NCBI GenBank assembly: GCA_027339965.1
Contig: DAHWNL010000038.1
Location: 35,831 to 99,830, forward strand
Source: Granulicella sp.
GTDB lineage: Bacteria > Acidobacteriota > Terriglobia > Terriglobales > Acidobacteriaceae
Length of the DNA stretch: 64,000 bases
Direction: 5' to 3'
Shown: positions 42,001 through 45,000 of the stretch, piece by piece
Position numbering within the stretch: position 1 is the first letter of the stretch
How the letters are laid out: each line of letters opens with the position of its first letter
Made by a program: the position numbers

Positions 42001-45000
42001 GGATAAGCACTTCCATACCGGCTGGATGGCGGTGACGGGGATTGTCTTGGGCGCTGTGGCCGGCTTCATCCAGATCTACCAGACCGCGTCTCGATTCATG
42101 CGCCGGGACAAATAGCAAGTAGAAGACAGGCATGGCGAGGAAGAGAAGATGATGAAAGGAATGAGGAAGCGCTGATGCCATCCCTGGAAGATTTCACCGA
42201 TGCGGATGTCCGCTCCATGCTCCTGCGGACGCTACGGCTGCTGGGCGTGCTTACCGCGTTGGGAATGCTGCTGACGGGATGGAAGCTGGGCTGGAGGAGC
42301 TCCCTTTTTCTGCTGTTGGGCGCGGCGATCTCCGGATCAGGGCTGTGGGAGTGGATGCGGTTGATCCATGCGGTAATGGAGCGAATGGAGGTTGGACGAA
42401 ACCCGAAACCCATGGGGATGGTCTTGACGGGCTTCTTCCTGCGCTTGGCAGTGGCGATTGTGGTGCTTTATATTAGTGTGAAGTACCTGAATGGTTCCGT
42501 TGTTGCGTTGGCCGTAGGGCTCGGGTTGGGCATTGTTTCGCTCACCGTGGAAGCCATACGCATGGCCAGAGCATGGACGGTTTAGCAGGAAGTAGCACCT
42601 GAACCTTGGGCTGCGCTGTTTCGTAGCCTATTGGCCGATTCCTTTATGCCTTCGCAACTGTTTTTTACCCGTTTTCTGAACCATCTCCTGGCCGGGCCTG
42701 TCGACCGTGCGATGGCGCTACTGCATCTGACGCCCAGTTACCCCCAGGCGCCGATCAACAACACAGCATCAATGGGTTTCCTGGTGTTTTTGCTGGTGCT
42801 GGGGTACTTTGCCGCCATTCGGCTGACGTTGAGCGTGGAGTCGCCGGGGCCGGTGCAACACCTCGCGGAGATGACCCATGAGTTCGTCTCCAACAGCGGT
42901 GAGCAAATCATTGGCCACGGCTACGAGCGGTTCACCAATTACCTGACGGTGCTGCTGCTTTACATCCTGTTCTGCAACCTGATTGGGTTGCTGATGCCCT
43001 GGTTCGAGTCGCCGACGGAGAACGTAACCGCCCCCATGGGCTTTGCCCTGGTCACGTTCGTCTACTACCACTATCACGGCATCCGGGCCAACGGCGCGGG
43101 CTACATCAAGCAGTTTCTTGGACCGGTGTGGTGGCTCTACCCGCTGCTTTTCCCGATTGAGATCATCTCTCACCTGGCCCGCATCATGAGCCTGACGGTT
43201 CGTCTCTATGCCAACATCTTCGCCGGCGATCTGCTGATTCTGGCCTTCTTTTCACTGATCCCCATTGGCATCCCAGTGCTGTTCATCGGACTGCACTTCG
43301 GCGTGGACATCATTCAGGCGTATGTGTTCTTCCTGCTGGCTTCGATCTACCTGAGTCTGGCTGTGGCGCACGAACACTAGAAGGCCGAGGCGCTCGATTC
43401 GCCGGGAGGCGATGCGGCGCGTAGCAAGCGAGGCCGTGTTTGCGATCTCTCCCAGCGGTCCGGTTTGCCGGGCCGTTGGACAGATTTGAGTTTTGTTGGA
43501 AAGATTCGGCTCTCGGGCCGAAGCAGGATCCCGCGGAGGGGCGCTCCCTCTCCGTGGTGCGTACTGCCGCCGATTCAGCGTGAGGGGGCCAGCACGGTGA
43601 GCCTCAACCACCCACTGACGGCGAGATCAAAGGGAGCAGGGAGTGCAATGTACAACACGATGCGTATCATGAAGTACTTTTTTATGACCATGGCGGCGAT
43701 TCTTCTGGCGTCGCCGGCGTTTGCCCAGGCGGGCGGCGATGGGATCAGCCAATGGGCTCCTATCGGCGCCGGCGTCGGCATGGGAATTGCAGCCGGTCTT
43801 TGCGGCATGGGTCAGGGCCGCGCGACGGCTTCAGCCACGGAGGCGCTGGCGCGCAATCCGGGAGCGCGGCCGGGTATCTTTACCTTTTTGATTCTGGGCC
43901 TTGCGTTCATCGAATCGCTCACCCTGTTCACCTTTGTCATCGTCTTCCTTTATGTGAAGTAGCTCTGAACGAAGTGAGTCGAAAGCAGGAATCAAGCCGG
44001 CCTCCGCGAAGCGGAGGCCGGCTTCGTTTCGGCGTTCGCGGAAGCATGGATTGATCAAAGTCTTGCGCTGATCTGGCGTCGGTCGACACGGAGGCGCAGG
44101 CGGCGTCTCTGGGCAAGACGGCTTCGCCGGACGCATGACTGCCTCCCTTGGCAGGGGCAAGGGAGGCCGGGGAGGACAGCTTGTCCCCGGCCAGAGACGA
44201 AAATCTCAGCCCAATCGGGGGGTGGGCGGGAAGTTGCGTAAACTGGCTGGTGTTGGCAAAGGCGATTCAGAGAGTGAAGATAGGGCAGACGGAGCATAAG
44301 ATCAGGCTGCGGGAGAGGTTTGAGTACCTGTTGTTGCGGGCGGTTGCCGGCACATTGGGTCCTCTGCCGCGCAGCGCTGCCCGGGCGATGGGAGCGGGGT
44401 TGGGTGCGCTGGTCTGGCTGCTGATGGGGCGTCTGCGGCGGGTGGGGATGCAGAACCTGAAGATGGCCCTTCCCGAGAAGACCGAGAAGGAGCGAAGACG
44501 GATTCTGCGCGAGCAGTTCCGGTCCCTGGGCTGGCAGATGGGCGAGTTCTGCAAGATGAAGGGCTACACGGCCGAGCAGGTGTCAAGGTTTATCCGCTAC
44601 CAGGGGCTGGAGCATTACCTGGCGGCGCGCGCCAAGGGGAAGGGAGTACTGGTGCTGACCGGGCATCTGGGGGCGTGGGAGCTCTCCAGCTTTTATCACT
44701 CGCTGATGGGGTATCCGATGTCTGTGGTGATCCGGCGGCTGGATAATTCCCTGGTGGACGAGTATGTGAACCGGATCCGCTGCCTACATGGGAACCGGGT
44801 GATCCATAAGGACGATTTTGCGCGTGGACTGTTGACGGCGATGCAGCAAGGCGAGACGGTGGGGATTTTGATGGATACGAACATGACTCCGCCGCAGGGG
44901 GTGTTCGTGCCGTACTTTGGAGTGGAAGCCTGCACAGGATCGGCGATGGCGCGGGTTGCGTTGCACTCCGGAGCGGCGGTGCTGCCGGGCTTTCTGCTAT

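Follow-up and report, generated by a model that had tools for sequence, protein, structure and literature searches.

A candidate cis-regulatory RNA between atpB and atpE of the Terriglobia, with a pseudoknot beside the Shine-Dalgarno site in one clade

The atpB-atpE gap and the parts of the element

In the window, by which we mean the whole 64,000-nt stretch of Granulicella sp. DNA that was analysed, 267 nt separate the end of atpB (43380) from the first ATG of atpE (43648), and the question raised by this locus is what occupies the gap and whether it acts on the synthesis of ATP synthase subunit c. The gap lies within an atpZ-atpI-atpB-atpE cluster on the forward strand, which opens with an atpZ-like gene (ATPase_gene1, 41843..42115, PF09527, E 4.7e-10) and continues with atpI for the ATP synthase I chain (42175..42585, PF03899, exceeding its cut-off), the open reading frame of atpB for subunit a (42631..43380, TIGR01131, 125.6 bits against a cut-off of 102.6) and atpE for subunit c (43648..43962, PF00137, E 1.3e-14), with in-frame ATGs at 43648, 43660 and 43669. 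A perfect hairpin in the sequence 3' of atpE (43994..44024, forward strand) probably marks the transcript end; a terminator scan made no call. We note that in most loci subunit c has an N-terminal extension (43669-43730 in the window) that by eye resembles a cleavable signal peptide, ends here in A-F-A-Q, and is present with or without the RNA element. The stretch from the atpB stop to the core described below often carries short imperfect palindromic repeats that vary between genomes (L077-L099, L114, L116 and L158).

The rest of the ATP synthase is encoded in a separate operon of the same genome (contig C70, approximately 187600-180860, reverse strand), where the gene order read by eye is b', b, delta, alpha, gamma, beta and epsilon, following hfq-hflX-like genes; our model of the Terriglobia element, R1, has no match at this operon. 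Among 80 genomes, 77 gave a match to the F1 gamma gene, and in each of these a comparison of positions by eye put it either on a different contig from atpE or at a distance exceeding 80 kb. The atp operon is split throughout the phylum, including 36 sampled genomes of other classes in which neither R1 nor a second model, R2, found an element before atpE. A link between the element and the split operon was therefore rejected, since carriers and non-carriers are both split, and splitting does not require the element.

The element occupies positions 43531-43643 of the window, on the forward strand. The genome-wide survey's note had described a 5' hairpin, an outer stem and a core between atpB and atpE at 43528-43640, and all of these parts are present in the window sequence; a contig-based reading of the coordinates was rejected, as it leads to window positions 7200-8300, which are coding sequence. 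The 5' hairpin, P1 (43531..43557), has 11 bp, folds at -20.3 kcal/mol and is found only in a clade of 58 genomes. Its loop contains GCTCCC (43543..43548), the 5' strand of the pseudoknot, which covaries with the downstream box; in the window the last bases of GCTCCC can alternatively lengthen P1. The core (43568-43623) is an irregular hairpin, in which an outer stem encloses near-invariant GUGAG/ACCACC internal loops and a variable inner stem. The outer stem, P2, is formed by a 5' arm (43568..43578) that pairs with a 3' arm (43615..43623), as indicated by the fold and by alignment covariation, with changes on both sides in six of seven pairs. The conserved 5' strand of the core, Y-GUGAG (43579..43584), has G16, T17, G18 and A19 invariant in alignment A1, and the conserved 3' strand, AACCACC-YM-CU (43606..43616), contains a CAC that can pair with GUG and a candidate C-loop, C[CAC]U or C[UCC]U. 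Between these strands lie the inner stem P3 and its apical loop (43585..43605), which vary by family among a short CACGG, a GAGG-type and a C-rich loop. Further 3' are the box GGGAGC (43632..43637), the 3' strand of the pseudoknot, and the Shine-Dalgarno sequence GGAG of atpE (43640..43643), read from the sequence and present at the equivalent place in relatives. Taken alone, the window copy folds no better than shuffled sequences (z = 0.01), and support for the element is therefore comparative.

Distribution and covariation of the core

For this comparison, so that the motif itself would not steer the choice of loci, the AtpE protein was used to find atpE in order-, class- and phylum-level samples, and the DNA 5' of atpE was then examined. 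The AtpE-picked loci were drawn from the other genomes that gave a match (119, 115 and 149) and comprise 108 Terriglobia loci (29 top-scoring loci, with the window's own genome left out, and 79 chosen by hand) and 40 loci of other classes chosen by hand, both hand-chosen sets being meant to cover a spread of families. A further 30 loci (L001-L030) were picked by DNA likeness, and so are biased towards the form seen in the window. Loci of genomes flagged as unpublished were counted in search tallies and support none of the claims made here. The pattern Y-GUGA(G/U)...N(A/G)CCACC-YM was present in 107 of the 108 AtpE-picked Terriglobia loci, which makes the core class-wide, and its near-invariant unpaired bases span 12 sampled families. 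As the Y-GUGAG motif belonged to the search rule, this count from AtpE-picked loci is the non-circular one. The core thus extends far past the Acidobacteriaceae, into which nearly all of the earlier matches had fallen, and the 33-nt near-invariant stretch of the original description stands within the 58-genome clade and dissolves beyond it.

Three loci lacking an intact core may be mentioned here. The sole AtpE-picked Terriglobia locus without it (L119, genome G308) has other sequence filling the gap, and its genome also has a second ATPase cluster. A second, alternative ATPase cluster at L100 was likewise without the core. At L040, from a genome of the same genus (G187), the inner stem and loops of the core have decayed and the P1 loop and box are intact as GCCCCC/GGGGGC, hinting that core and pseudoknot can act as separate layers.

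The element is single-copy and tied to one housekeeping cistron in mid-operon. Model R1 gave one strong match in the window's own genome and eight weak matches elsewhere in the phylum, all inside long reading frames; the sensitivity of this genome-wide RNA search was low, with three of ten family genomes missed. A loose pattern for extra copies was uninformative, with 135 matches in the own genome. One GTDB-wide pattern for the GAGG-type form, which was also our coverage of other phyla, gave at least 120 matches, with gene context taken from the 80 listed: atpE lay downstream in 73 of these, with atpB also present in 71, and the remaining seven had no atpE and, by eye, no inner stem. Titles among the matches listed included Bryobacteraceae, Solibacteraceae, Acidiferrales, Terriglobales and Korobacter. 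On a contig titled Acidimicrobiia (L290) a complete element of the Terriglobia type is accompanied by atpB and atpE, which may reflect either mislabelling or transfer. The core was also seen on five short contigs of relatives from three metatranscriptome assemblies of one study, contigs which carry no strand, end or level information and are given no weight as evidence here.

The core shows strong covariation. In an alignment of 68 Terriglobia cores, 89.9% of cells pair, against 70.9 +/- 1.0 in shuffles and 37-49% in slid controls; both sides have changed in 163 cells and in 9 of 13 pairs, and no shuffle and no slide reached the observed covariation score. Inner-stem pairs 1-4, scored on 197 distinct cores, are kept in 185, 195, 185 and 189 of them, with several pair types, where slid controls give 29-45%. 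The stems vary freely with compensation, and the loop bases are fixed. The 3-bp GUG:CAC helix does not vary within Terriglobia, and so has no covariation support there. Among the 197 cores the apical loop was GAGG-type in 100, short CACGG in 64, a C-rich loop in 20 and other in 13, in a set enriched for the first two types by the searches used. These findings, together with position and distribution, bear out the earlier proposal of a cis-acting RNA structure tied to atpE.

Several details of the core deserve comment. Of 150 pseudoknot-free cores, 113 have a U-N-A-U-like tail 3' of the outer stem, as do 7 of 58 pseudoknot cores; pairing of this tail back on GUGAG was rejected, as UGAU variants break the pairing by eye. 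A motif resembling the tail, GGC(A/U)U-N-AU, lies 5' of the outer stem in 34 of the 150 pseudoknot-free cores, with carriers including L121, L123, L124, L126, L127, L131 and L135 together with pattern loci. In L128 and L129, from one family, core position 5 has changed from G to U and the opposite A to G, a possible exchange of G-A for U-G. A C-loop is a three-dimensional motif in which, according to the accessible part of PMC9516175, the longer strand places 3 nt between two pairs and the triads are compatible. Of the 197 cores, 92 have C[CAC]U and 89 have C[UCC]N as candidates for such a loop, and the third base is C in 196. U faces C in 13 cores, so that the triad is not kept by the definition given in that part of PMC9516175, and the partner of the G is ambiguous between two invariant Cs.

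A related layout was found in 4 of the 40 other-class loci, in a second class that is probably, at a guess, the Blastocatellia. The core there reads N-GG-AG-C...G-NAWW-CC, with GG, CC and T-N-A-T invariant, and an AU-rich tail is present in 28 of 28 cores. Model R2 of this form finds an element in 39 of 40 genomes, 13 of which among those matched lay outside its training set, and every best match is upstream of atpE. One genome (G493) has a second weak R2 match (L350:882-961, E 3e-4), intergenic and before a Ser/Thr-kinase-like gene, which probably arose by chance, as core bases differ. The element has the same position in both classes, with two stems, a tail and the AG/NA loop in each; the two long apical types occur in both, and GG:CC of the second class could stand in place of UG:CA. 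We infer from these shared forms that the two elements may have a common ancestor; this ancestry is a matter of inference because neither model recognises the other form, R1 finding none of nine second-class loci and R2 giving one weak match (E 0.42) on 30 Terriglobia loci. RNAalifold gave no consensus on the second-class alignment A2, and the structure that we named pairs 66% of it, a modest support with slid controls reaching a similar covariation score. In 36 loci of the remaining classes R1 and R2 found no element before atpE, and atpB-atpE gaps there are mostly short (median approximately 73 nt by a rough measure).

A pseudoknot beside the Shine-Dalgarno site in one clade

The genome-wide survey's note had described a pseudoknot between the P1 loop and a box adjoining the atpE Shine-Dalgarno sequence, and had considered it family-wide. 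Of 81 family loci, a tree of atpB/atpE DNA groups 58 as a single clade (100/99) and leaves 23 outside it; this clade may correspond to the Acidobacteriaceae in the narrow sense. P1 and the pseudoknot are confined to it. Loop and box pair at all six positions by Watson-Crick in 42 of the 58 members, at all six with G-U included in 49, and at five or more in all 58, while none of the 23 other members of family f1 forms six pairs and the pseudoknot was not seen in other families. The pseudoknot therefore holds within the clade and is not family-wide; it is the core that is class-wide.

Permutation of loops and boxes gave a mean of 13.4 +/- 2.6 and a maximum of 23, against the 42 of 58 observed with a picking rule that was written after the sequences had been inspected; less tuned methods gave 35 of 58 against 12.0 +/- 2.7, and 17 of 58 against 6.8 +/- 2.0 (maximum 13). 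A first automatic loop picker chose wrong hexamers, and the tree alone was retained from it. The fully paired spellings are GCTTCC/GGAAGC (23), GCCTCC/GGAGGC (7), GCTCCC/GGGAGC (6), GCCCCC/GGGGGC (4), GCTTTC/GAAAGC (1) and GTCTCC/GGAGAC (1), and of the remaining members seven are complete with one G-U and nine have five pairs. Mapped on the tree, pair 3 has seven loop changes, seven box changes and seven joint changes; pair 4 has 6, 9 and 10 in the same order, and pairs 2 and 5 have one joint change each. The pseudoknot thus survives a tree-aware check at pair 3. Tree-aware sign tests point in the right direction and do not fall below 0.05 (5/5 pairs, p 0.0625; approximately 2.7/3, p 0.25), because independent pairs are too few.

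In 54 of 58 members the box ends 1-3 nt 5' of GGAG, and its first base lies 15-20 nt upstream of the ATG, again in 54 of 58. A helix placed there would be likely to impede 30S binding. One subgroup includes several members whose P1 loop is able to pair with the Shine-Dalgarno sequence itself. In pseudoknot-free genomes the core lies 17-344 nt from the Shine-Dalgarno site, a distance that exceeds 45 nt in 17 of 76, and the core is therefore not itself a switch that hides this site. Nested folding does not separate the groups by access to the Shine-Dalgarno sequence (median unpaired 0.44 against 0.37).

Known systems and possible modes of action

The element has no counterpart that we could find among described RNAs. 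The best Rfam 15 match in the window was 21 bits against a cut-off of 47, and 14 matches in 20 further, diverse Terriglobia loci were all under cut-off, which extends to these loci the earlier statement that no family comes near. A literature search that covered the accessible text of the motif surveys PMC5737381, PMC11109978, PMC8632094 and bioRxiv 10.64898/2026.10.21.760802, and whose scope ended short of their supplements and of subscription papers, likewise gave no description, as in the earlier search. On comparative grounds we rate the element a candidate new orphan family of cis-regulatory RNA.

The closest precedent is the ATPC RNA motif, described in the accessible text of PMC1950547 (Weinberg 2007) as an orphan cis RNA of cyanobacteria with a three-stem junction. 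Both lie between the genes for subunits a and c; the present element differs in being an unbranched hairpin, in occurring in Acidobacteria and in having no Rfam match. The two-hairpin pseudoknot topology resembles that of the cyano-30S motif, which according to the same text precedes the S1 gene in cyanobacteria; here there is no Rfam match, and the second hairpin stands alone in most lineages. PPR10 binds the atpI-atpH gap of chloroplasts, where it makes the message more stable and increases translation of subunit c, as stated in the part of PMC13408319 available to us. Its site involves the same gene pair (a and c), acts in cis on subunit-c translation and message stability, and is a functional analogue of the reading favoured below. 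The binder there is an organellar helical-repeat protein, and no sequence relation is expected.

It is likely that the element sets the amount of subunit c made. We tentatively favour, at a confidence that falls a little short of even, a protein-bound element that sets subunit-c translation, to which the pseudoknot was later added as a gate. A protein would recognise the element in the mRNA and set subunit-c output from the atpZ-atpI-atpB-atpE transcript. The internal loops, which are invariant, would form the binding surface together with the U-N-A-U tail, and binding would alter access to the atpE start or shield an atpE message produced by processing. Within the clade of 58 genomes, docking of the P1 loop on the box 5' of the Shine-Dalgarno sequence would narrow ribosome entry, and the putative binder would make or break the loop/box helix. 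The most attractive candidate partner would be an ATP synthase subunit or assembly factor of the b'/b/F1 operon, so that feedback would keep c-ring output matched to F1; ribosomal protein S1, or another factor of general function, may serve instead. The exclusive mid-operon link to the one multi-copy subunit and the distance at which the core can lie from the Shine-Dalgarno site argue for a processing element or a binding site rather than a classic switch, and the remoteness of F1 gamma from atpE makes feedback across operons plausible, while leaving the distribution of carriers unexplained. Translation of yeast Atp9, a second functional analogue, is assembly-dependent, as reported in the accessible part of PMC8893259.

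Invariant loops and a pseudoknot beside the Shine-Dalgarno sequence are equally typical of riboswitches and of protein-bound leaders. The earlier description of the element as riboswitch-like draws on topology and in that form is not supported; the single-gene association, the mid-operon position and the distant cores suit a protein site or processing element no less well. A translational riboswitch, in which the core would bind a small energy-state ligand (ATP/ADP), or else protons by way of the C-rich bulge together with an A+.C pair, and binding would lock the clade's pseudoknot by the Shine-Dalgarno site, is in our view unlikely, if worth serious attention. Fixed unpaired bases within covarying stems agree with it, as do the 5' regulatory position of this conserved structure, the spacing of 1-3 nt between pseudoknot and Shine-Dalgarno sequence and, in the own genome, a competing nested fold that buries this sequence (unpaired probability 0.003). 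Acidobacteria already possess an RNA that binds ADP/ATP, the nadA motif (NAD+-I), which does so through an A/C-rich bulge (accessible text of PMC7297122 and PMC10702441). The present core shares with NAD+-I its occurrence in Acidobacteria and a bulged hairpin with an A/C-rich bulge and an AGYG string on the opposite strand (PMC6859854 and PMC7297122, in the parts available), and translational control by NAD+-I (same parts, and PMC10702441) parallels that proposed for atpE. However, the features that define NAD+-I are absent, as far as the available text gives them: the bulge here is ACCACCYM (3' strand NACCACC-YM), in contrast to ACANCCCC; the 7-bp P1a between bulge and GYG loop is absent, with at most 3 bp (GUG:CAC) here; and a single domain precedes atpE, in contrast to tandem domains before nadA. 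A permuted nadA aptamer was rejected on these grounds.

Further evidence weighs against a riboswitch. An ADP/ATP riboswitch should control several genes, according to the accessible text of PMC6859854, and this element has a single gene association, in mid-operon; outside the 58-genome clade no common switching element was found with the core, which lies up to 344 nt from the Shine-Dalgarno site; and apical loops of unrelated sequence swap between cores. In subunit c, E-S-T is the signature of Na+ coupling, and it was present in none of the groups parsed (two loci were unparsed and approximately three misparsed). A link to Na+ coupling was therefore rejected, and sensing of Na+ is unlikely. 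The Na+-I riboswitch (DUF1646), which the available part of PMC9337991 reports sometimes before ATP synthase genes, in Acidobacteria and with many gene associations, differs from the present case, where there is no Rfam match and no E-S-T subunit c. In a bolder version the core would serve as aptamer in a new class of riboswitch, responding directly to energy state (ATP/ADP, or cytoplasmic pH) and holding down synthesis of the c-ring; it would go back to the common ancestor of two Acidobacteriota classes, and the clade's pseudoknot would have been acquired as expression platform. We consider this a long shot.

A ligand-free, constitutive element, acting as translation enhancer, ribosome standby site or RNase cut-and-protect signal, would account for the exclusive link to atpE and for the loose spacing to the Shine-Dalgarno sequence, and the atpB-atpE gap of E. 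coli has a similar enhancer or processing role. In the cut-and-protect version a stable atpE-only message would give a high c:a ratio, and the strong 5' hairpin and AU-rich tail (113 of 150 pseudoknot-free cores, and 28 of 28 in the second class) would suit it. However, near-invariant unpaired bases over 12 sampled families exceed what stability needs, and a helix at the Shine-Dalgarno site should hinder rather than help initiation. We give this explanation about the same weight as the riboswitch. Finally, a reading without RNA, as a mobile REP-like repeat, DNA-binding site or upstream coding extension, is very improbable and already largely refuted: the atpE frame is indeed open through the element in the own genome, but it is not conserved in relatives, where it can be limited to 102-105 aa enclosing a 97-aa match; a single copy at a class-wide fixed position departs from the dispersed-copy pattern of REP repeats; and the compensatory changes speak against this reading, as does a G-U pair in 87 of 197 cores, which on the opposite strand would give A-C.

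The protein-bound reading that we favour and its alternatives touch the same open question, namely how bacteria produce c subunits at approximately ten per subunit a and keep the membrane part in step with a separately encoded F1. Direct evidence on these points in bacteria is scant, and such feedback has been described in mitochondria and chloroplasts. The element offers a compact, single-copy and testable RNA in an abundant soil phylum, and a natural experiment: the core occurs with the pseudoknot and without it, its apical loop is of three kinds, and a sister class has a second spelling. Binding of ATP/ADP or protons, if shown, would make the element a new riboswitch class, and binding of a subunit of the ATP synthase would make it a bacterial leader for assembly feedback.
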